Assembly: GCA_037444305.1 (NCBI GenBank) | Contig: JBBIMP010000023.1 | Location: 2,798 to 66,797, forward strand | Reading direction: 5' to 3' | Length of the DNA stretch: 64,000 nt | DNA from: Acidobacteriota bacterium | Lineage (GTDB): Bacteria > Acidobacteriota > UBA6911 | Part shown: positions 28,230 to 37,043 of the stretch, piece by piece | Layout of the letters: the number at the start of each line of letters is the position of its first letter | How positions within the stretch are numbered: the stretch's first letter is position 1 | The notes under the pieces: model-generated | What the model was told of the DNA's origin: nothing | What the model saw: only the letters and a program-made list of their open reading frames with translations | Databases searched by the model: none | Position numbers and translations under genes: made by a program

Positions 28230-28907
28230 ATGCAGACGGAAAAATATCTCAAAGGCAGCCACCTGGGGGCCGGGCTCAACCCAACGGAGCTCGCCGCGCT
28301 CACGGCGATCGCCCGCACGAAGACCGTGACCAAGGGATCGATCCTCTTCATGGAAGGGGAAAAGGCCGAGGGTCTTTTCGTCCTGTTGAAGGGGATGCTC
28401 CGGATCTACAAGTCGGCTGCGTCGGGCAGGGAATATACGATCCACAGGATTCAGCCCGGGCAGATGTTCGCCGAGGCGGCCGTGTTTCACGTCGGCCGTT
28501 TTCCGGCCAACTGCGCCGCCCTGGAGGATTCCCTCGTCGCCTTTTTCCCCAAGGAGCGGTTCGCCGCGCTCATCGAGAAATCCCCGCAGATCTCGCTGAA
28601 AATCATCGCATCTCTCTCCAGGTTTCTGCGCGACTACAACCAGCAGGTGGAGAACCTCTCGCTGAAGGAAGTTCCCGCCCGCATCGCCTCCTACCTGCTG
28701 CGCGAATCCGAACGGCTCGATTCGCCGAGCATCGACCTGGAGATATCCAAGGCGGAACTGGCCAGGGGGCTGGGCACCATCAGCGAGACTTTTTCCCGCT
28801 CGCTGAAAAAACTCAAGGAGCTGCGGGTGATCAAGGTGGACCGCAACCGGATCACCATCCTGGATGAAGACCGCCTGGCCGACATCGCAGACGGTGAAAA
28901 AAGCTGA
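28230..28907 (+). CDS. Crp/Fnr-family transcriptional regulator
   Basis: A cNMP-binding beta-roll (ILFMEGEKAEGLFVLLKGMLRI) and a C-terminal HTH (ISKAELARGLGTISETFSRSLKKL). Start is either the ATG at 28230 or the one at 28203. Confidence 0.8.
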   Translation: MQTEKYLKGSHLGAGLNPTELAALTAIARTKTVTKGSILFMEGEKAEGLFVLLKGMLRIYKSAASGREYTIHRIQPGQMFAEAAVFHVGRFPANCAALEDSLVAFFPKERFAALIEKSPQISLKIIASLSRFLRDYNQQVENLSLKEVPARIASYLLRESERLDSPSIDLEISKAELARGLGTISETFSRSLKKLKELRVIKVDRNRITILDEDRLADIADGEKS

Positions 28908-28990: not shown

Positions 28991-29743
28991 ATGCCGGTAC
29001 GGAACATCATTCACATCGACGAGGAAAAGTGCGACGGCTGCGGATTGTGCGTCCCCTCCTGCGCGGAAGGCGCCATCCAGATCGTCAACGGCAAGGCAAA
29101 ACTCGTGAACGAGGTGTATTGCGACGGCCTGGGCGCCTGCCTCGGCGAGTGCCCGCAGGATGCCATCCGCATGGAGCAGAGGCGGGCGCCGGAGTTCGAT
29201 CCGCACGCGGTCGAGGCGCATCTCGCCGCGCTGTCGGCCAAACAGGCGCCGGCTCCTCCGAAACCGCTGTTTTCATCGCCTCATCCCGCCGGCTGCCCCG
29301 GTTCGATGTCGCAGGTGTTGCAGCCCACGGCAAACCCTTGCGCGGCCCCGGCGGCGACGGCGCAGCCGCCCTCGAGGCTCGGCAACTGGCCGCTGCAGTT
29401 GCACCTGGTGCCGGTGCAGGCCCCGTTCTATGAGAATGCGGATCTGCTCATCGCGGCCGACTGCGCCCCGTTCGCCTACGCGGGTTTCCACGACGAGTTC
29501 ATCAAGGGAAAGACGGTGATGATCGGCTGCCCGAAGCTGGATGACGCCGGCGCCTACGTGGAAAAGCTGACGCAGATTTTCGCCGGCAACAGCATAAGAT
29601 CGGTCGAGATTGCCTTCATGGAAGTGCCCTGCTGTTTCGGGCTGGTCCGGCTGGTGCAGGAGGCAGTCGCCGGTTCGGGGAAGAGCATCCCGGTGAATCT
29701 GGCCAAGCTCGGCATCCGCGGCGGCATCGCGCAGCGCGGGTAG
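28991..29743 (+). CDS. 4Fe-4S dicluster-domain protein with a Cys-containing C-terminal domain of unknown function
   Basis: CDGCGLCVPSC and CDGLGACLGECP cluster motifs. The RBS AAAGGAG precedes the ATG at 28991, inside ORF 28952..29743. Confidence 0.65.
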   Translation: MPVRNIIHIDEEKCDGCGLCVPSCAEGAIQIVNGKAKLVNEVYCDGLGACLGECPQDAIRMEQRRAPEFDPHAVEAHLAALSAKQAPAPPKPLFSSPHPAGCPGSMSQVLQPTANPCAAPAATAQPPSRLGNWPLQLHLVPVQAPFYENADLLIAADCAPFAYAGFHDEFIKGKTVMIGCPKLDDAGAYVEKLTQIFAGNSIRSVEIAFMEVPCCFGLVRLVQEAVAGSGKSIPVNLAKLGIRGGIAQRG

Positions 29744-29854: not shown

Positions 29855-31894
29855 TCACTGCCTGCGGGCGAACGAATCCTGCGGCAGGCGGAGGCTCTCG
29901 AGCGTCAGCGTCGCGATATCCACCACCCGGATCCGCTCATCCAGATCGCGCAGTTTGACCGAATCCTCCAGCATCTGCTTGCAGTAGGCACACGAGGTGA
30001 CAATCGTGTCCGCCCCCTGTGCCTGCGCCTGGTCCACCCTGAGGTTGTTGATCCTCTCCCCGGCCTTCAGGTCCATCCAGAAATGTCCGCCGCCGCCGCC
30101 GCAGCACAGGCTCCGGGACCGGGCGTTCTTCATCTCCGCCACGTTCACGCCGGGAATGGCCCGGAGCACCTCCCTCGGGCTGTCGTAGATCTTCTGAAAG
30201 CGCCCCAGGTAGCACGGATCGTGATACACCGCCTTCTGCGCCGGCAGACCGACCGGCCGCAGGTGATCGCTCCAGAGCATCTCGTGCAGGTACTCCGTGT
30301 GGTGCACCACGCGGTAGTTTCCGCCGAATTGCGGGTATTCATGCGCCAGGACGTTGAAACAGTGCGGGCAGGCGGTCAGGAGCACCTGGAAACGGCGGCG
30401 GTTGAGCAGTTCGATCTGGCTCCTGGCCACTTCCTGAAACAGCGACTCGTCCCCCAGCAGCCGCGCAGGATCCCCGCAGCATCGCTCGTCCGCCCCGAGT
30501 ACGCCGAAGCGGATCCCGGTGGCCTGCAGCAGGCGGCAGAGGTCCTGGGCAATCTGCTGCTTCGTGGGATCGAACGTGGTGCAGCAGCCGATCCACAGCA
30601 GCACATCGATCGACTCCCCCTCGCCGATGACCGGGATCCCCATTTTTTCGATCCACGCCATGCGCTCCCCTTGCGGCCCGAAGGGATTGCCGAGCTGGCC
30701 GAGCATCTTCAGCATGCGGGCGGCATCGACCGGAACCGAGCCTCCCATCATGGTCTGGTGCCGGCGCAGGTCGACGACCGTGTCGAGGTGCTCGACCCGC
30801 GCCGGACAGACCTCCTGGCAGGCGCCGCAGGTGCGACAGTACCAGATCAGGTCGCCGTCGATGGCGCCGCCCACGACCTGACGGGGCGCGCCGGCGCCAT
30901 TCCCGTTCCCCCTTCCGGCTTCGCTGCGCACGAAGGCCTTCAGCTCGGAGATCAGCGCGCGCGGCGAGAGCGGCTGCCTCGCCTGCCGCGAAGGGCAGAC
31001 GTCGTCGCAGCGGCCGCACTCGACGCACCCGTCGAAGCCCAGCCTTTCCCGCCAGGTGAAGTCGGCTGCGGTGGCGATGCCGATCTGCAGCGCCGCTTCG
31101 TCGATGTCCTCCGCCGCCATAAGCGCGGCTACATCCGGCCGCGCGAGGCTGCCCCAGGCCTCGGTCTTCTGCAGTGCCACGTTGGCCGGGATCAGCACCA
31201 TGTGCAGCAGCTTGGTGTAGGGGATCAAGGCGATGAAGCCGAGCGCCATGACGCAGTGGGTCCACCAGACAAAGGCGTGAAGCGCGCGCCCGGCGTCTGC
31301 CCCCAAACCTGAAAACAAAAGCGAAAAGGCAGAGCCCACCGGGGACCACGCTGCCCACGGATCGCCAGCCACCCTGATGCGGAGCCCTTCGACCAGGAAT
31401 CCGCTCAGGAGAATCCCCGCGAGCAGCGCCAGCACCAGGTGATCCGCCGCGCGCGTGGGTAGCGTCGCCGGCCGGGCGATCGTGCGGCGGTAGAGGGCGA
31501 TGCCGATCCCCACCAGCGCCAGCAATCCCGCGATATCGGCCGCGAGCGAAAACACCAGGTAAAGGGTGCCCCGGAAGAGCGACGTGCCCAGGTCCATGTC
31601 CAACATCACCAGCAGCGTCGTCAGGAACATCACCGCAAAGGCATAGAAGATGAGACCGTGAAACAGCGCCGGCAGGCGCTCGCGCCCGACTCCCCGCTGC
31701 AGCAGAATCTCCTTGAGCATTGCCATGAGGCGCGCGCCGGGAGCCGACGTGCGATCTACGGGACGGCCGATCTGCCACTGCCTGTATCTCCGCCGGATCC
31801 CGAGGCCGAACACCACCGCGGTCGCGCCCAGCAGCGCGTACATGATCCAGATGAAGCTGACGTTCCAGCCGAGTTCTCGATGGGCTTCCACCAT
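29855..31894 (-). CDS. Fused NarI-like dihaem cytochrome b membrane domain plus HdrD-like Fe-S/CCG-domain oxidoreductase (DsrMK/HdrED-type)
   Basis: An N-terminal ~300 aa with five or more TM helices and conserved His residues. Then CVECGRCDDVCP and CRTCGACQEVCP (two 4Fe-4S sites). Then two CCG modules (WIGCCTTFDP ... CPHCFN and CCGGGGGHFW ... CAYCKQ). I take the ATG at ~31894 inside ORF 29855..31975. Confidence 0.7.
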   Translation of the reverse strand: MVEAHRELGWNVSFIWIMYALLGATAVVFGLGIRRRYRQWQIGRPVDRTSAPGARLMAMLKEILLQRGVGRERLPALFHGLIFYAFAVMFLTTLLVMLDMDLGTSLFRGTLYLVFSLAADIAGLLALVGIGIALYRRTIARPATLPTRAADHLVLALLAGILLSGFLVEGLRIRVAGDPWAAWSPVGSAFSLLFSGLGADAGRALHAFVWWTHCVMALGFIALIPYTKLLHMVLIPANVALQKTEAWGSLARPDVAALMAAEDIDEAALQIGIATAADFTWRERLGFDGCVECGRCDDVCPSRQARQPLSPRALISELKAFVRSEAGRGNGNGAGAPRQVVGGAIDGDLIWYCRTCGACQEVCPARVEHLDTVVDLRRHQTMMGGSVPVDAARMLKMLGQLGNPFGPQGERMAWIEKMGIPVIGEGESIDVLLWIGCCTTFDPTKQQIAQDLCRLLQATGIRFGVLGADERCCGDPARLLGDESLFQEVARSQIELLNRRRFQVLLTACPHCFNVLAHEYPQFGGNYRVVHHTEYLHEMLWSDHLRPVGLPAQKAVYHDPCYLGRFQKIYDSPREVLRAIPGVNVAEMKNARSRSLCCGGGGGHFWMDLKAGERINNLRVDQAQAQGADTIVTSCAYCKQMLEDSVKLRDLDERIRVVDIATLTLESLRLPQDSFARRQ

Positions 31895-31898
31895 GGGA

Positions 31899-32393
31899 TT
31901 ACACTCCTGTCGAATGCCGTGCGGGCAGAGCGGCGGCCGGCAGCACGACCTGGGGCAACGGCTCGGCAAACACACTCACCGGCGCATCGGCCGGCACAGT
32001 CACCTCCCGGCCGTGCCCGACGCCGGAAGGCGTGCGCCGGTAGTGGCTGCGCACCTTCTGCGAGACAACATCCCAGAGTTCCGTCGCCGCCACCAGCTTT
32101 GCTCCGCGCAGGTCCAGAAGCGCCAACAGCGGCCGCAGCGCTGCCATGGACCTCGACAGGCAGCCGCATCGGTCGACCAGGAACGAGCTCCAGGGCCCCT
32201 CGAACCGCAGGGCCGCTCGCAGCCCCGTGCGGTCCATCAACGAACACTCCCGCGCCTCGTCCTCAAACCAGGCGATGATCTCGATTCCCTGCTGCCGGGC
32301 GTATTCCTCGATCCGGCGCCGCTGGTCGGCGCAGCACACCTCGCCGGATCCGGTGCAAGACGATATCGGGCTCACATATGCAATGGCCTTCAT
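31899..32393 (-). CDS. Small Cys-rich protein with a resolvase-N-terminal-like (flavodoxin-like) fold; paralog A1
   Basis: MKAIAYV ... VCCADQ ... LVDRCGCLSRS ... AATELWD. About 35-40% identical to the upstream paralog. Internal ATG at 32393 inside ORF 31899..32408. Confidence 0.5.
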   Translation of the reverse strand: MKAIAYVSPISSCTGSGEVCCADQRRRIEEYARQQGIEIIAWFEDEARECSLMDRTGLRAALRFEGPWSSFLVDRCGCLSRSMAALRPLLALLDLRGAKLVAATELWDVVSQKVRSHYRRTPSGVGHGREVTVPADAPVSVFAEPLPQVVLPAAALPARHSTGV

Positions 32394-32447
32394 GCCTCCT
32401 CCCTCCACGATGGTCAGGGGCGCGTTCCATCCGCGCCCCCGGCGGTT

Positions 32448-32927
32448 TCACAGGCCGGTCGGCTGCCGTACCAGAGCGGCGAAGTTGAGGCGGGCGGGCC
32501 GCTTCATTCCGATCCGATCCCGCACGGGCACGATCTGCGTGATCACGCAGGTCGGCGGCCGCAGCGCACCTTTGTGGAAGTGCCGCACCTGCTGCGAGAG
32601 GCAGTCCCACAGCTCGGTGGCCGACTGCAGCGCGACATTCTTTTCCTGCAACGCCTCCAGCAGCGGCCTCACCTCCGACAGGGACCTGCTGAAGCACCAG
32701 ATACGCTCCACCAGGATGAGGTCGTAGGAATCCGGGTGCGCCAGCATCGCCTTGACACCTGGACGCTCCACCACCGGCCCGTGGCAACCGTCATCTTCAA
32801 ACCGCGCCACGATCTCTATGCCGTGTGTCTTGGCGTACAGCTCAATCTGCTCGCGCTGCTCCTCGCAACAGATTTCGATATCGGTGTTGGGGATTCGAAT
32901 GCAGTTCACATAGGTGATGGCTTTCAT
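32448..32927 (-). CDS. Small Cys-rich protein with a resolvase-N-terminal-like (flavodoxin-like) fold; paralog A2
   Basis: MKAITYV ... ICCEEQ ... LVERIWCFSRS ... SATELWD. RBS AAGGAG 7 nt before the ATG at 32927 (inside ORF 32448..32972). Confidence 0.5.
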   Translation of the reverse strand: MKAITYVNCIRIPNTDIEICCEEQREQIELYAKTHGIEIVARFEDDGCHGPVVERPGVKAMLAHPDSYDLILVERIWCFSRSLSEVRPLLEALQEKNVALQSATELWDCLSQQVRHFHKGALRPPTCVITQIVPVRDRIGMKRPARLNFAALVRQPTGL

Positions 32928-32967: not shown

Positions 32968-32983
32968 AGCACGCTCCGTGCCA
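32968..32983 (-). promoter_or_regulatory. Candidate sigma-54 (-24/-12) promoter: TGGCACGGAGCGTGCT
   Basis: On the minus strand, the GG and GC elements have exactly the consensus spacing. It lies ~40 nt upstream of the A2 ATG and immediately downstream of a GAFTGA-type bEBP gene. Confidence 0.45.
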
Positions 32984-33312
32984 GGCCCCGGGCCGCAAGC
33001 TATCACTATGTTTTCAAATGGTTTATGACCGATCGATCCGCGGACAGGCCGTTGCGTCCCATGGCGTGAGTGTAAGAAAACCTTGCGGCGAGCCGGACAA
33101 AAGGGCCGAACCGAGGACGCAAATCACTATTAATGAATGGTATGCAGGCAGCAGCGGCCCGCTGTAAGGATTTCTTGCATCGTATTCGGCGCTGCGGGAA
33201 TGGCGCGCCAGAAACAAAAGAAATGCAATGATTTGCAGTCCCGGATAGTCCCGCGCAAATAAAACTATCGCCTCTGCGGGATCCGGCAGCAGGATCCCCG
33301 GCGCCTGCACTA

Positions 33313-34677
33313 TCAGTCGAGGCCGTGTTTTTTCAGCTTGCTGTGCAGGCCGACGCGGGAGCAGCCGAGTATTCTCGCGGCGGCGGTGCGGTTGCCGGAG
33401 GTGTGGTCCAGAACCCGGATAATGTGCTCGCGCTCCAGTTCCGAGAGCGTCTTGAACCCATGGGCGCCGGCGGGAAGACGGGAACCGTTCAGCCCGGCAG
33501 TGACCGCCGGGGGGAGCGACCTCCGGGTGAGCGCACGCTTTTTTTCGAGCACAACGGCGGAGGCGATGATGTTCTCCAGTTCCCGGACGTTTCCCGGATA
33601 GTCGTAACGCTCCAGGATCTCGAGCACGTCGTCTTCTATGTATTCGATCCGCCTGTCGTTCCTCCGGCAGTGCCGGTCGAGGAAGAAATAGGCCAGCAGG
33701 TCCACATCCCCCTTCCGCTCCCTGAGCGGCGGGAGGTGGATGGAACTGATGTTGAGCCGGTAATAAAGGTCGAGGCGAAATCCGCCCGCCTCGATCATCG
33801 CCGGCAGGTCCCGGTTGGTAGTGGCGATGACCCTCACGTCCACGCCCCGCCGCTGCGTCGATCCCACGTGAAAGAACTCCCCCTCCTGCAGAACCCGCAG
33901 GAGCTTTGCTTGGTTGACCGCCTCCAGGTCGCCGATCTCGTCCAAGAAGAGCGTGCCGCCATCCGCTTCCTCGAAGAAGCCGGTTTTCTGCCGGTGGGCG
34001 CCCGTGAACGCGCCCCTCTCGTGGCCGAAGAACTCGGAGGCGAACAGGTCGGCCGCGTGCTCCGCCATATTGACCGCAATGAAGGGCCCGGCAGCGCGAG
34101 GACTGGCGCGGTGGATGGCGTGCGCCACCAGCTCCTTTCCGGTTCCGCTCTCCCCCTGGATGAGAACGTTGTTGCCGCTCCGCGCGATCTGCTCCAGCCT
34201 TCCGAGGATGCGAAGCAGGGCCGGATCGCGCGTGACGATTCCGTGGAAGCCGGCCTCGTGTCTCAGCTTTTCCTGGGCAATCTCCCCCCGCAGCCGGGAG
34301 ACCTGGCCGCGGAGACGGCTGTGCTCCAATGCGCGTTCCATGGAGGTCAGGAGCCGGTTTTTGTCCACGGGCTTGCAGATGTAGTCGTAGGCTCCCAGCT
34401 TCATGGCATCGACCGCGAGCGAAACGTCCTCCACCCCGGTAATCACGATCACCCCCAGGTCATGTTTCTCGCGGACGTACCGGAGAATGTCCCGGCCCGT
34501 GACCGTGGGCATATCCATGTCCAGGAGGATCAGGTCGAAATCACCGCCGTCAATCACACTGAAGGCGCGGCTGCTGTCCTGGAGCGTCTCCACTTCGAAG
34601 CGGCCGTCCTGGGCGAAGAACACGAGGAAGTGGTTCAGGACGGCCTCGTTGTCGTCGATGATGAGGATGCGGTTCAC
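33313..34677 (-). CDS. Sigma-54-dependent response regulator (NtrC/AtoC family): REC, AAA+ and Fis-type HTH domains
   Basis: ILIIDDNE ... LLDMDMP (REC), GESGTGKE, GAFTGA, a C-terminal HTH (AAARILGCSRVGLHSKLKK). GTG start at 34677, overlapping the kinase stop (GTGA). Confidence 0.85.
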   Translation of the reverse strand: MNRILIIDDNEAVLNHFLVFFAQDGRFEVETLQDSSRAFSVIDGGDFDLILLDMDMPTVTGRDILRYVREKHDLGVIVITGVEDVSLAVDAMKLGAYDYICKPVDKNRLLTSMERALEHSRLRGQVSRLRGEIAQEKLRHEAGFHGIVTRDPALLRILGRLEQIARSGNNVLIQGESGTGKELVAHAIHRASPRAAGPFIAVNMAEHAADLFASEFFGHERGAFTGAHRQKTGFFEEADGGTLFLDEIGDLEAVNQAKLLRVLQEGEFFHVGSTQRRGVDVRVIATTNRDLPAMIEAGGFRLDLYYRLNISSIHLPPLRERKGDVDLLAYFFLDRHCRRNDRRIEYIEDDVLEILERYDYPGNVRELENIIASAVVLEKKRALTRRSLPPAVTAGLNGSRLPAGAHGFKTLSELEREHIIRVLDHTSGNRTAAARILGCSRVGLHSKLKKHGLD

Positions 34678-36140
34678 GTAGCCCTCCCGCCGATGGGGAA
34701 TATGTAACGAAAGGTCGCGCCCTTGCCCTGCGAGCTGTCCACCTCGATCCGGCCGCCGTGCTGTTGCACGATGCCGTAGGTGATCGACAGGCCCAGCCCT
34801 GTCCCGCCCGCGCGTTGCCGGGTCGTGAAAAACGGATCGAAAAGCCGGGCCTGAGCCGCTTCGTCGATTCCCGGGCCGTTGTCCTTGATGGCCACCCACA
34901 CCTTGGGCGGAAAGGTGACAGCGCGCGTCGTGATCTCGATGGCCGGGTCGGGGGAGCCGGCGAGCGCGTCCGCGGCATTGATCAGCGTGTTCACGATGAC
35001 CTGGCCGATGCGGTTGGCGCTCCCCTTGAAGGTCGGCAGCCGTGGATCCAGGTCTTCGACGACGCGGAAGTGCTTGATGCGGTTGTGCACTAGGCGCCTC
35101 GACGATTCGATCACAGCGTTGAGGTCGACATCGTCCTCCAGCAACCCTTCGTCCCGCCGGGCGAAGATCCTGAGATCGCGGACGATGTCGCGGATGCGCG
35201 TCACGCCGTCGACCATATCGTCCAGCAGCGCCGGGGCGTGCTTGCGGAAGAAAGGATACTTCAGCCGCGCGACCGTCAGCTCCGGGTTGCGCCCGGCCTC
35301 TTCGTCCAGCAGCGGAAGGATGTCGTCGAAGCTCTCGCGCACTATCTGCATGTTGCCGCCGATGAACTGCACCGGGTTGTTGATCTCGTGCGCTATGCCG
35401 GAGACGAGCTGCCCGAGCGAGGCCAGCTTCTCCGACTGGATGAGCTGGCTCTGCTGGTTGAGCAGCTCGTCGTTGGCGCGGCGCAGCTCGTGGGACTTGG
35501 CATCGAGCAGGTCCCAGGCTTCCACCAGCTCCTGCTCGCGCCTGCGCAGGCTGGTGACGATCGAGGTTGTGATCCAGATGGTGACGAACAAGGTGACGAA
35601 AAAGACCAGGGCCACTGTCCCGATGAAGCGGACGTCCTGGTGCCGGGGAACCGGGTGGAGCGCACGCAGGTTCACGTGCGGGAGCACCTCGTGGTACTCC
35701 AGCAGGACAACCCCCATGAACATGCCGAACGCCACCAGGCCGAAGGCGTAGACCTCGGCCCGCGACAGCAGGATGCTGCTGATGATGGCGTGGAAGAGGT
35801 AGAAGAACAGAAGAGGATTTTCGATCCCCCCGGCGAAGTGGATGAGCAGGCTCAGGGCCAGCGTGTCCAGGTAGGTCTGCAGGATGGCCTCGGTTCGATT
35901 GGTGCCGGAACTCCTCCCTCCGCGGGCCTTCTGCCGCCGGTGCCCGAAGAAGAAAACCGTGTTGTAAAGGCCGATCACCGCGGCCACTGTGAGTGTGCCC
36001 GCGCGGGAGAAACTCACCCCCAGGAGATCGTGAGCGAAGAAGATCGAGGCTGCCAAGCCGGCCAGGAAGACCCAGCGGATGTTGACGAACCACCAGAGGC
36101 GGAATTTGAGTTCTTCTTCTCTGAGCGATCGACTCGACAT
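34674..36140 (-). CDS. Sensor histidine kinase with a multi-TM N-terminal sensor domain
   Basis: HisKA (SGIAHEINNP) and HATPase_c (DNGPGID ... GTGLGLSI). The start is at 36140 or at 36176. Confidence 0.8.
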   Translation of the reverse strand: MSSRSLREEELKFRLWWFVNIRWVFLAGLAASIFFAHDLLGVSFSRAGTLTVAAVIGLYNTVFFFGHRRQKARGGRSSGTNRTEAILQTYLDTLALSLLIHFAGGIENPLLFFYLFHAIISSILLSRAEVYAFGLVAFGMFMGVVLLEYHEVLPHVNLRALHPVPRHQDVRFIGTVALVFFVTLFVTIWITTSIVTSLRRREQELVEAWDLLDAKSHELRRANDELLNQQSQLIQSEKLASLGQLVSGIAHEINNPVQFIGGNMQIVRESFDDILPLLDEEAGRNPELTVARLKYPFFRKHAPALLDDMVDGVTRIRDIVRDLRIFARRDEGLLEDDVDLNAVIESSRRLVHNRIKHFRVVEDLDPRLPTFKGSANRIGQVIVNTLINAADALAGSPDPAIEITTRAVTFPPKVWVAIKDNGPGIDEAAQARLFDPFFTTRQRAGGTGLGLSITYGIVQQHGGRIEVDSSQGKGATFRYIFPIGGRAT

Positions 36141-36362: not shown

Positions 36363-37043
36363 CTAGGCAAGCATCCGCTCCCGGGCCAACCGGCGGCCGG
36401 TTGCGGTATGGAGCTTCTTTTCAATAAGGCTTTCCCGTGCAGGCCGGTCGAGCAAAGATCTGCGCTGCAGCAACTTGAACAGGTTCACCGCATCCCGGAC
36501 GATCCTTCCATCCGCCTCGGCCGAACCGTTCGACTCGCCGCCGCCCGACAGGATATGGCAGACCCGGTCGATCACTTCCCCCTCGGTTCCCAGCTCCAGC
36601 AAAACGGCGCACGCCTCTTCCTCGGATCCCGGTTCCGCAAGGTTCGCCAGCATCGCCGCGGCAATCACCACCTTGGGCTCGCCGCCCTCCTCCGAGTTGA
36701 TCTCTTCGGCCAGCTCGGCAATCTCCAGGCACTGCTGCAGCCGGTCATTCTCGGGTTTTAACGACCTGCGCACGACCGCCAATAGCCGGTCGCGATACAG
36801 CGCGCTCAGATTCTCTCCTTCGAACATCTCGGGCATGCAGGTTTCGGCGTACTTGCAGTACTCCAGGCAGCCCAGGTTGCGCTTGGGATTCAAAAAGCGG
36901 TGGCCGCACCTGCAGGTGCGCTTGGCGTCATCCTTCCAGAATTCGACCGGCTTGCCGCAACTGGGGCACTTGACGTCGTAGATGTCGTCCGGCTTCCAGA
37001 ACATGGTGTTCTGTCCCGGACAGCGGAGATCGTTCTGGCTCAC
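36363..37043 (-). CDS. Cys-rich (zinc-ribbon-like, 8 Cys) N-terminal domain protein with a degenerate HD-like C-terminal region
   Basis: CPSCGKP ... CRCGH ... GCLEYCKYAETC. It is co-oriented with, and ~190 nt upstream of, the kinase gene. Confidence 0.4.
   Translation of the reverse strand: MSQNDLRCPGQNTMFWKPDDIYDVKCPSCGKPVEFWKDDAKRTCRCGHRFLNPKRNLGCLEYCKYAETCMPEMFEGENLSALYRDRLLAVVRRSLKPENDRLQQCLEIAELAEEINSEEGGEPKVVIAAAMLANLAEPGSEEEACAVLLELGTEGEVIDRVCHILSGGGESNGSAEADGRIVRDAVNLFKLLQRRSLLDRPARESLIEKKLHTATGRRLARERMLA

Follow-up and report, generated by a model that had tools for sequence, protein, structure and literature searches.

To our knowledge, serine recombinases such as the gamma-delta/Tn3 resolvases, Gin/Hin, TP901-1, and Bxb1 are known solely as DNA-cutting enzymes. 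PspA, whose gene comes first in a sigma-54 operon, acts as a feedback regulator on PspF, and RssB joins a receiver to a pseudoenzyme domain in an adaptor protein. DsrC is a small conserved-Cys protein tied genetically to the NarI-like, Fe-S, and CCG domains of DsrMK, an HdrED-like membrane complex of which it is a substrate; its two Cys residues lie on a C-terminal arm. The ETF:(methyl)menaquinone oxidoreductase (EMO) of syntrophs, the DUF224 protein Swol_0698, is clustered with etfBA and carries a diheme membrane domain, FeS clusters, and a Cys-rich DUF224/CCG region in 81 kDa (PMC8805022, PMC3582634). The locus compared here with these systems was found in a 64-kb stretch of DNA (the window), and in it a fold for DNA recombination has apparently been reused in respiration or signaling.

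Two tandem genes, A2 and A1 (Table 1), had been described in the initial annotation as paralogs resembling the resolvase catalytic domain. Both open reading frames were recovered, with a GGAGG Shine-Dalgarno sequence upstream of the A1 ATG. BLASTP bore out the paralogy (42% identity over 128 aa; E value, 7e−33), and both proteins exceeded the gathering score of 23.3 for the Pfam resolvase domain PF00239, with 48.8 bits for A2 and 29.5 bits for A1. A DNA-binding domain is missing, as had been noted; no HTH or other Pfam domain was detected in A1 or A2. Fold prediction returned a resolvase-type catalytic fold for both, as expected from the annotation. The fold matches of the AF2 model of A1 (pLDDT, 86.7) were serine recombinases, and neither a flavodoxin fold nor FMN-binding loops were found in the two proteins. 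Helix E is predicted to span residues 109 to 122 (∼14 residues) and to be followed by a low-confidence tail, with the A1 and A2 chains stopping ∼40 residues beyond it.

TABLE 1. Features of the locus and their positions in the window
Feature	Position	Strand	Description
MK	29855..31894	minus	679 aa; NarI-like membrane domain, two [4Fe-4S] motifs, and two CCG domains
A1 (RES)	31899..32393	minus	164 aa, MKAIAYV...; second, more degenerate paralog
A2 (RES)	32448..32927	minus	159 aa, MKAITYV...; principal dead serine-recombinase-domain protein
Sigma-54 type −24/−12 promoter, TGGCACGGAGCGTGCT	32968..32983	minus	5′ end 56 nt upstream of the A2 ATG
Candidate upstream activator sites	33119..33236		Inverted pair of GCAAATCA, 33119-33126 and 33229-33236
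NtrC-type sigma-54 activator response regulator	33313..34677	minus	454 aa; receiver, AAA+ (GAFTGA), and HTH_8 (Pfam)
Histidine kinase	34674..36140	minus	488 aa; multipass membrane N-terminal region, HisKA, and HATPase_c (Pfam)

When A1 and A2 were aligned to gamma-delta resolvase plus three genuine recombinases, the register was gapless, with Y6 on Y6. In this register the position of the Ser10 nucleophile is occupied by Ile10 in both proteins, so the initial proposal of Cys in place of the nucleophile is not upheld. The C20-C21 doublet aligned to gamma-delta S15-L16, at the helix A N-cap, and the conserved Gln of A1 and A2 corresponds to Q19, not Q14; the genuine recombinases in the same alignment kept YxRVS. 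Within the wider family, here termed RES, Ser was found at the nucleophile position in 0 of 51 aligned members and in 0 of 191 members overall (Ile in 102, Val in 67). R8 is replaced by Asn in A2 and Ser in A1 (Arg in 6 of 51 aligned members), D67 by Trp in A2 and Gly in A1 (Asp in 0 of 51), and R68 by Cys in both (Arg in 0 of 51). R71, retained as R81, is the sole survivor of R8, D67, R68, and R71 in A1 and A2; the DRLGRS landmark pointed out earlier thus stands for this Arg and falls for D67 and R68. Compared with serine recombinases, RES proteins keep the equivalents of Y6, Q19, D36, R45, D59, and R71 and differ by Ile or Val for Ser10, the loss of R8, D67, and R68, a truncated helix E, the absence of a DNA-binding domain, and a new WD(C)xSQxxR motif. 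Judged by their sequences, both proteins are serine-recombinase catalytic domains that stand alone and are catalytically dead, and the original view of resolvase-type domains with neither nucleophile nor DNA-binding domain was supported.

Homology to recombinases and the basic C-terminal tail of RES proteins (median charge, +4), which bears a loose resemblance to the minor-groove arm of resolvases, could be read as signs that A1 and A2 still act on DNA, either as a cryptic invertase or resolvase with another nucleophile or as accessory DNA-binding subunits controlling the promoter. This is very improbable given the lost catalytic residues, the lack of an HTH, zinc-ribbon, or recombinase domain, and a helix E of only ∼14 residues. 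The surroundings also speak against it: the neighbors of A1 and A2 in the window are housekeeping genes, GC content is uniform, no mobile-element genes were found among the neighbors, and no meaningful inverted repeats bracketing an invertible segment were found between positions 31500 and 33400. An invertible promoter was ruled out, as there were no suitable inverted repeats. The context of RES genes is chromosomal and respiratory or regulatory, in contrast to the mobile-element context of serine recombinases. A PADLOC scan gave no matches, and a defense-system explanation was therefore rejected; neither the Rfam nor the tRNA scan returned anything in the window.

A word-index homolog search using A2 alone as the query returned four matches, and an exhaustive profile search gave the family. 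Approximately 70 RES representatives (50% clustering; E value, <1e−10) were followed by an abrupt fall to genuine recombinases, and 106 additional members were identified, every one from metagenomes or metagenome-assembled genomes (MAGs). No relative of A1 or A2 exceeded 49% identity. The family is unnamed and undescribed and is annotated as "recombinase," with public labels reading "recombinase family protein" or "DNA invertase Pin-like," and literature searches for resolvase-like proteins linked with sigma-54, Hdr, DsrMK, response-regulator outputs, or pseudoenzymes found nothing relevant. The RES hallmark comprises W77, R81, and W107-D-C109-x-S-Q-x-x-R115, of which D108 and S111 are invariant and W107, Q112, and R115 near-invariant across several phyla. 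A2 keeps W77, R81, and W107-D108-C109-x-S111-Q112-x-x-R115 and ends in the tail motif KRPARLNF; in A1, W77 is replaced by Gly and C109 by Val, and the tail motif is gone. RES genes occur in one to three copies or as in-frame 2x and 3x fusions, and the duplications have several separate origins; these repeated independent duplications and fusions suggest an oligomeric working unit. The public labels would fit a reading of A1 and A2 as decaying mobile-element remnants, that is, functionless pseudogenes, but this is hardly credible. The open reading frames are intact and have Shine-Dalgarno sequences, the models are folded with high confidence, and conservation of the hallmark across phyla, together with the fixed synteny described below, effectively refutes it.

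Related loci were searched for using a 14-sequence RES alignment as the query. Across 38 nonredundant loci, spanning Myxococcota, Krumholzibacteriota, Acidobacteriota, Nitrospirales, Bdellovibrio-like organisms, and Thermodesulfobacteriota, only four gene families recurred: RES (38 loci), the oxidoreductase gene MK (33), the histidine kinase gene (HK; 29), and the response regulator gene (RR; 27). Separate gene calls agreed on this RES-MK-HK-RR module. MK comes after RES in 33 of the 38 loci, and the gap between them ranges from 5 to 292 nt. In the window, MK starts 5 nt after the A1 stop codon; the HdrD-like gene reported downstream of A1 is thus in place, and both its co-occurrence with RES and its functional tie to A1 and A2 gained support. 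RES-MK pairs with no adjacent two-component system were found (L020, L033, L034, and L037), as were RES-led operons with no MK, at L025 (RES with an acyl-CoA dehydrogenase gene) and L031 (a monocistronic 2x RES gene); L025 and L034 lie in the same MAG. At L124, an MK homolog (53% identity) has neither RES nor a two-component system nearby, which shows that RES is not a subunit of all MK proteins.

The membrane domain of MK matched PF02665 (Nitrate_red_gam; 33.3 bits; cutoff, 22.9) and is predicted to form a NarI/HdrE/DsrM-like heme-b anchor. Fer4_8, Fer4_9, and Fer4_10 scored above their cutoffs, and CCG gave 112 bits over two stretches, corresponding to two intact domains. This architecture is that of HdrED, DsrMK, and EMO. 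NCBIfam matches to TfrB, LdhH, GlpC, TmcB, HmcF, and DsrK were partial and subthreshold, and none identified MK at the equivalog level (TfrB, 156 bits versus 385; DsrK, 35 versus 400). As with DsrC and DsrMK, a small conserved-Cys protein is tied genetically to a NarI-like, Fe-S, and CCG module, a likeness that is a functional analogy. However, MK is one fused polypeptide with a weak DsrK match (E value, 8e−9, far below the NCBIfam cutoff), and no other dsr genes recur in the module. The DsrC fold is unrelated to that of RES, in which a single conserved Cys sits at a helix N-terminus, and the intramolecular disulfide or trisulfide of DsrC would be impossible. Compared by architecture, MK is like EMO in overall makeup and size (∼680 to 720 aa), and genes for acyl-CoA dehydrogenase or other acyl-CoA enzymes adjoin some modules (L025, L122, and L123). 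In the EMO cluster, however, etfBA precedes the oxidoreductase gene, whereas RES precedes MK, and no ETF genes recur in the RES-MK module.

The −24/−12 pattern TGGCAC-N5-KTGCW (GG-N10-GC type) had a single match when both strands of the window were searched (0.10 expected), upstream of A2. In 20 of 38 loci an equivalent sigma-54 site precedes the first RES gene, whereas the control strand had none in the 38; L122, L123, and L126 also carry the site. Two of the three window occurrences of GCAAATCA form an inverted pair between the response regulator gene and A2; as the count of this octamer in the whole window was not above chance, the pair is weak evidence for activator sites. The activator gene adjoins RES in 27 of the 38 loci, RES usually being divergent from the kinase-activator pair, and the sensors of the kinases in relatives are 6TM and PilS-like or consist of sCache_3 plus HAMP. 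The kinase and the NtrC-type activator most likely turn on the RES-MK operon.

Some RES relatives are fused to a receiver domain. These receiver-RES genes sit within the kinase-activator operon, and the fused receiver shares 48% identity with the receiver of the neighboring activator. A metagenome scan with receiver-RES was informative for L042 to L044 only, with 77 of 80 loci representing generic response regulators; L044 carries receiver-RES, kinase, and activator genes and has no MK within 8 kb. Like PspA, RES is encoded by the first gene of a sigma-54 operon divergent from its activator, and like RssB, the fusions join a dead enzyme domain to a receiver; these are analogies, with no sequence or fold relationship to RES. 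In another reading, RES may be a signaling accessory and not the partner of an enzyme, binding the kinase or the sigma-54 activator as a connector or feedback regulator and possibly toggling between MK and the activator. Besides the operon arrangement and the presence of receiver-RES, with its duplicated cognate receiver, inside the kinase-activator operon, this somewhat unlikely alternative draws on RES leading different operons of one apparent regulon (L025 and L034, from one MAG), on the MK homolog at L124 that occurs with neither RES nor a two-component system, and on C-terminal residues that are Ala in 34 of 50 RES proteins (Ala-Ala in 15 of 50). Such ends recall the C-terminal degrons of short-lived regulators. 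Against it, the RES-MK pairs listed above have no adjacent two-component system, the activator has its own receiver for control, and the reading would leave unexplained why RES is so tightly coupled to MK and why C109 is strictly retained where MK occurs.

The core Cys residues are 9, 20, 21, 48, 78, and 109 in A2 and 13, 20, 21, 50, 76, and 78 in A1. Five Cys positions had been given as conserved between the paralogs; the alignment revealed three common columns (20, 21, and 78), with C48/C50 and C9/C13 offset and C109 present in A2 only. Nor are the shared positions kept in orthologs, the outcome named beforehand as counting against a metal or redox cofactor: among 191 nonidentical RES members, Cys was found at position 20 in 3, at 21 in 9, and at 78 in 32. 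The suggested likeness to MvhD/FlpD was likewise not borne out, as PF02662 did not match A1 or A2 even at an E value of ≤1. Of the 191 members, only 3 carry the CC doublet and 20 contain no more than one Cys, and the two-domain fusion of L031 has none. These counts refute an Fe-S or MvhD-like role for the family as a whole, and on this sequence evidence RES proteins as a family are not metalloproteins. Of the earlier argument that conserved Cys residues point to selection rather than decay, selection survives, on family conservation and synteny, and the metal, Fe-S, or MvhD inference does not.

A narrower version, confined to the lineage of the window, would make the former active site of A1 and A2 a Cys-lined metal/Fe-S or redox-disulfide center passing electrons to MK. 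In each of A1 and A2, 6 of 6 core Cys residues fall in crevice-lining segments that make up 36% of the core, against a family background of 27% excluding C109 (by Fisher tests that ignore phylogeny). Several replace the family-conserved D9, S20/R21, and Y48, some coincide with or adjoin the catalytic positions of recombinases (R68, and V9 beside S10), and all three members having the CC doublet also have C78. The rarity of Cys in the family, including a Cys-free member, and the lack of any Fe-S or MvhD profile match weigh against this reading, and no orthologs above 49% identity exist by which to judge Cys conservation; we consider it improbable.

C109, within WDCxSQxxR, behaves differently from the other Cys residues: it was kept in at least one RES copy in 36 of 36 MK-containing loci and was present in all single-copy loci. 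A1 lacks it, as do 35 of 191 members and three of five receiver fusions, and second RES copies have Val, Ala, Leu, Met, or Gly in its place. The role of C109 could be structural instead of redox. The C109-X5-R115 spacing equals that of the CX5R loop of PTP, ArsC, and rhodanese; as the segment has a predicted helical structure and comes after beta-4, not beta-1, this likeness was set aside as coincidence.

The reading we prefer, with a probability of roughly 45%, is that RES may be a non-catalytic partner, possibly thiol based, of the membrane, quinone-linked MK in a sigma-54-dependent operon. A1 and A2 would not recombine DNA and would be the leading genes of that operon. RES would act in the cytoplasm through protein-protein contact with MK, as an adaptor or a protein substrate, using the remodeled face of the former active site, to which A2-type copies would add the basic [RK]Pxx[LF]xF tail. 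The C109 thiol would communicate with the CCG (disulfide-chemistry) site of MK, as DsrC serves DsrK. A2 would be the principal copy and A1 a degenerate partner, probably heterodimerizing with A2, and receiver fusion would place RES action under direct phosphorylation control in some lineages. The RES operons of L025 and L031 that have no MK, the receiver-RES of L044, and the gaps in C109 occurrence run counter to a dedicated MK partner.

A combined reading, tentative and rather doubtful, would have the recombinase fold stripped of all its DNA chemistry and converted into a C109 thiol carrier or adaptor dedicated to MK, serving as a response-regulator output in some lineages and having, in the lineage of the window, a Cys-lined site that may bind a metal or Fe-S center. 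So read, RES would form a DsrC-like redox relay of independent origin, and the former active site in the window lineage would have become lined with five to six Cys residues.

In a 2022 review of mobile-element recruitment, the recruitments of serine recombinases listed are all of catalytically active forms, for example, invertases and excision switches (PMC8987985). If the partner reading of RES is true, a conserved use of the serine-recombinase fold involving neither catalysis nor DNA would be the first of its kind. Approximately 200 sequences are labeled "recombinase" or "DNA invertase"; such labels overstate the number of mobile elements in MAGs and need correcting. RES also marks an uncharacterized respiratory or redox module, in which a sigma-54 two-component switch is coupled with an Hdr/EMO-like quinone oxidoreductase; the module occurs widely among uncultured anaerobic lineages of Myxococcota, Krumholzibacteriota, Acidobacteriota, and Desulfobacterota-like bacteria. 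RES offers a handle on the targets of CCG-domain enzymes that have no obvious substrate.

The tandem paralogs A1 and A2 (42% identical; closest ortholog, 49% identity) belong to a family, here termed RES, that has the fold of the serine-recombinase catalytic domain and carries no DNA-binding domain. When the family was aligned with three genuine recombinases and gamma-delta resolvase, its invariant Tyr6 fell on the recombinase Tyr6 with no gap, and therefore the position of the Ser10 nucleophile is occupied by Ile10 in both A1 and A2. The initial annotation had placed a Cys here; the CC doublet in question (residues 20 and 21) instead matches gamma-delta S15-L16, which caps the N terminus of helix A. 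Likewise, Q19 is the conserved Gln, and not Q14 as the motif register had implied. None of 51 aligned members had Ser at position 10, Asp at gamma-delta D67 (Trp in 37) or Arg at R68, and six had Arg at R8; Y6, Q19, D36, R45, D59 and R71 (R81 in RES numbering) were mostly retained. Across 191 non-identical members, position 10 was Ile in 102, Val in 67 and Ser in none. Judged by these residues, RES proteins are dead recombinase domains, and residual activity on DNA is effectively excluded. A separate stand-alone resolvase-like protein of 143 amino acids (P0068; YVRIATERG) has Ala for Ser10 and Ser at the D67 position and otherwise resembles genuine recombinases; it may represent an independent case of catalytic inactivation.

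The cysteines of A1 and A2 had been read as five conserved positions, indicative of a metal or MvhD-like role. Only three columns are shared, and among the 191 members C20 was found in 3, C21 in 9 and C78 in 32. At most one Cys was present in 20 of the 191, one natural two-domain RES fusion has none at all, and no Fe-S protein or flavodoxin was among the fold matches listed. Absence of Cys conservation from orthologs was the outcome that the initial annotation itself had given as refuting its idea. With the Cys unconserved and no such fold match listed, a metal or MvhD-like role as a family-wide trait is excluded. All six core Cys of each paralog lie in loop or helix-start segments lining the former active-site crevice (family background without C109, 27%), so a lineage-specific metal or disulfide site could still exist; we consider a metal centre restricted to A1 and A2 improbable. 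A different Cys, C109, belongs to the motif best conserved across the family, W107-D108-C109-x-S111-Q112-x-x-R115; D108 and S111 do not vary there, and conservation reaches at least 96% at each of R115, W107 and Q112 (191 members). That RES proteins are pseudogenes is likewise effectively excluded, with near certainty.

When 1.8 billion representatives were searched exhaustively with a profile, ~70 clusters matched at E<1e-10, the strongest full-length matches being short stand-alone proteins; past E ~1e-12, matches turned into genuine recombinases keeping YxRVS. A second search added ~100 members, all metagenome or MAG derived. Public labels are "recombinase family protein", "DNA invertase Pin-like" or "hypothetical", and no NCBIfam model names the family. 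Tandem duplication has occurred independently several times, and in-frame double and triple repeats exist (P0006 and P0005). About half of the proteins have a basic tail with [RK]Pxx[LF]xF (KRPARLNF in A2), and a separate subgroup has a lengthened helix E and an Ala-Ala terminus. Overall, 34 of 50 proteins end in Ala and 15 in Ala-Ala (...KEAA, ...KRAA; loci L003-L041), whereas A1 and A2 end in ...TGV and ...TGL. These termini resemble ssrA-like C-terminal degrons, a likeness that suggests regulated proteolysis.

A scan with one genome per species identified 37 RES loci, all in MAGs, from Myxococcales, Bradymonadales, Krumholzibacteriota, Acidobacteria/Vicinamibacteria, Nitrospirales, a Bdellovibrio-like organism and Thermodesulfobacteriota. 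All-versus-all ORF clustering of 38 non-redundant loci gave only four recurrent families: RES (38/38), a fusion of NarI-like, two [4Fe-4S] and two CCG domains termed MK (33/38), a histidine kinase (29/38) and an NtrC-type sigma-54 activator (27/38). Contig ends account for most missing genes, and precomputed gene calls revealed the identical module on further contigs. RES always precedes MK, by 5 to 292 nt. Kinase sensors are PilS-like with six transmembrane segments, or periplasmic sCache_3 with HAMP.

The sequence TGGCAC-N5-KTGCW has a single match in the window, counting both strands (0.10 expected by chance). Comparable -24/-12 sites precede the first RES gene by 42 to 126 nt at 20 of 38 loci (control strand, 0) and are present at three additional loci. 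Further upstream, an inverted pair of GCAAATCA could provide sites for binding of the activator; over the window as a whole, this octamer is not enriched (3 occurrences against 2.07 expected). The window contains no tRNA genes and no Rfam families at gathering threshold. Neither the ferredoxin-like nor the Crp/Fnr-type gene was conserved with the module in the 38 clustered loci, and the 213-amino-acid Cys-rich protein has no Pfam match on record and does not recur at related loci.

Features of the window and of homologous loci (L numbers)
Feature	Coordinates	Strand	Remarks
A2 (RES)	32448-32927	-	159 aa
A1 (RES)	31899-32393	-	164 aa
MK	29855-31894	-	5 nt after A1
Activator	33313-34677	-	
Kinase	34674-36140	-	Pfam: HisKA and HATPase_c only
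Sigma-54 type promoter	32968-32983	-	5' end 56 nt upstream of A2 ATG
Inverted pair of GCAAATCA	33119-33126, 33229-33236		~135-250 nt upstream of promoter
Cys-rich protein (...CPSCGKPVEFWKDDAKRTCRCGH...)	36363-37004	-	213 aa; directly upstream of kinase
Ferredoxin-like protein	28991-29743	+	250 aa; Fer4, AF_0155 family; convergent with MK
Crp/Fnr-type regulator	28230-28907	+	adjoins ferredoxin-like gene
Receiver-RES fusions	L043:7998-8906, L044:7983-8882		
Conserved ~580-aa ORF	L043:8956-10713, L044:8930-10666		after receiver-RES; no Pfam match
Long acyl-CoA dehydrogenases	L025:7450-9264, L123:9894-11789		directly after RES or RES-MK
Arylsulfotransferase	L126:8217-9671		after MK

The main rival to a role with MK, a PspA-like feedback or connector function on the sigma-54 two-component system, is less probable, with several arrangements in its favor. 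Six proteins (P0032, P0051, P0054, P0057, P0061 and P0066) fuse a complete response-regulator receiver domain to RES. Receiver-RES genes directly follow those for the kinase and activator, and their receiver shares 48% identity with the receiver of the neighboring activator (E value, 4e-31); it is therefore a duplicated cognate receiver. RES also heads different operons: at L025 the gene after RES, which faces the kinase-activator pair, encodes a long acyl-CoA dehydrogenase in place of MK (the same MAG holds RES-MK elsewhere, at L034), and at L031 a monocistronic double-RES gene lies under a sigma-54 promoter. Finally, MK exists without RES, as at L124, where a homolog (53% identity) lacks both RES and the two-component system. 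At a distance of 3 to 6 kb, this homolog has neighbors encoding a SulP transporter, a metallo-beta-lactamase/rhodanese fusion and two Sulf_transp proteins; such sulfur-related neighbors, as also at L126, are sporadic. RES-MK pairs at L020, L033, L034 and L037 have no adjacent two-component system. Besides its receiver-RES fusion, L043 has a RES that stands alone and two genes of the MK type.

C109 is kept in at least one RES copy at all 36 loci with MK and in every single-copy locus; its loss is confined to second copies or loci without MK. At L043, the receiver-fused RES is the copy retaining it. Position 109 is Cys in A2 and Val in A1. We infer that RES acts through protein-protein contacts. 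Its most likely role, at a probability of roughly 45%, would be as a cytoplasmic partner of MK, either adaptor or protein substrate. The disulfide chemistry of HdrB/D and DsrK resides in their CCG domains, and for this reason C109 is proposed to communicate with the CCG site of MK; DsrC-DsrMK offers a precedent, in which a complex of this kind is served by a small thiol protein. Of the two paralogs, A2 would be the main copy; A1, from which W77, C109 and the tail motif have disappeared, would be its degenerate partner.

MK shares its architecture with EMO/DUF224, the characterized ETF:methylmenaquinone oxidoreductase. There, etfBA comes ahead of the oxidoreductase gene (PMC8805022, PMC3582634), in the position taken by RES before MK. 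At L123 the order is sigma-54 promoter, RES, MK and acyl-CoA dehydrogenase. The long dehydrogenases at L025 and L123 are unrelated (22% identical), and genes for acetyl-CoA synthetase, acetyl-CoA hydrolase and ADP-forming acyl-CoA synthetase flank the L122 module. Such acyl-CoA enzyme neighbors hint at acyl-CoA-linked electron transfer; given the occasional dehydrogenases and the etfBA-like position, a donor-docking role for RES is conceivable.

Full-text literature searches returned no description of such dead-recombinase proteins, and the serine-recombinase uses given in a 2022 review of mobile-element recruitment are catalytically active only (PMC8987985). RES is thus regarded as a new, non-catalytic form of a known fold within an undescribed four-gene module.
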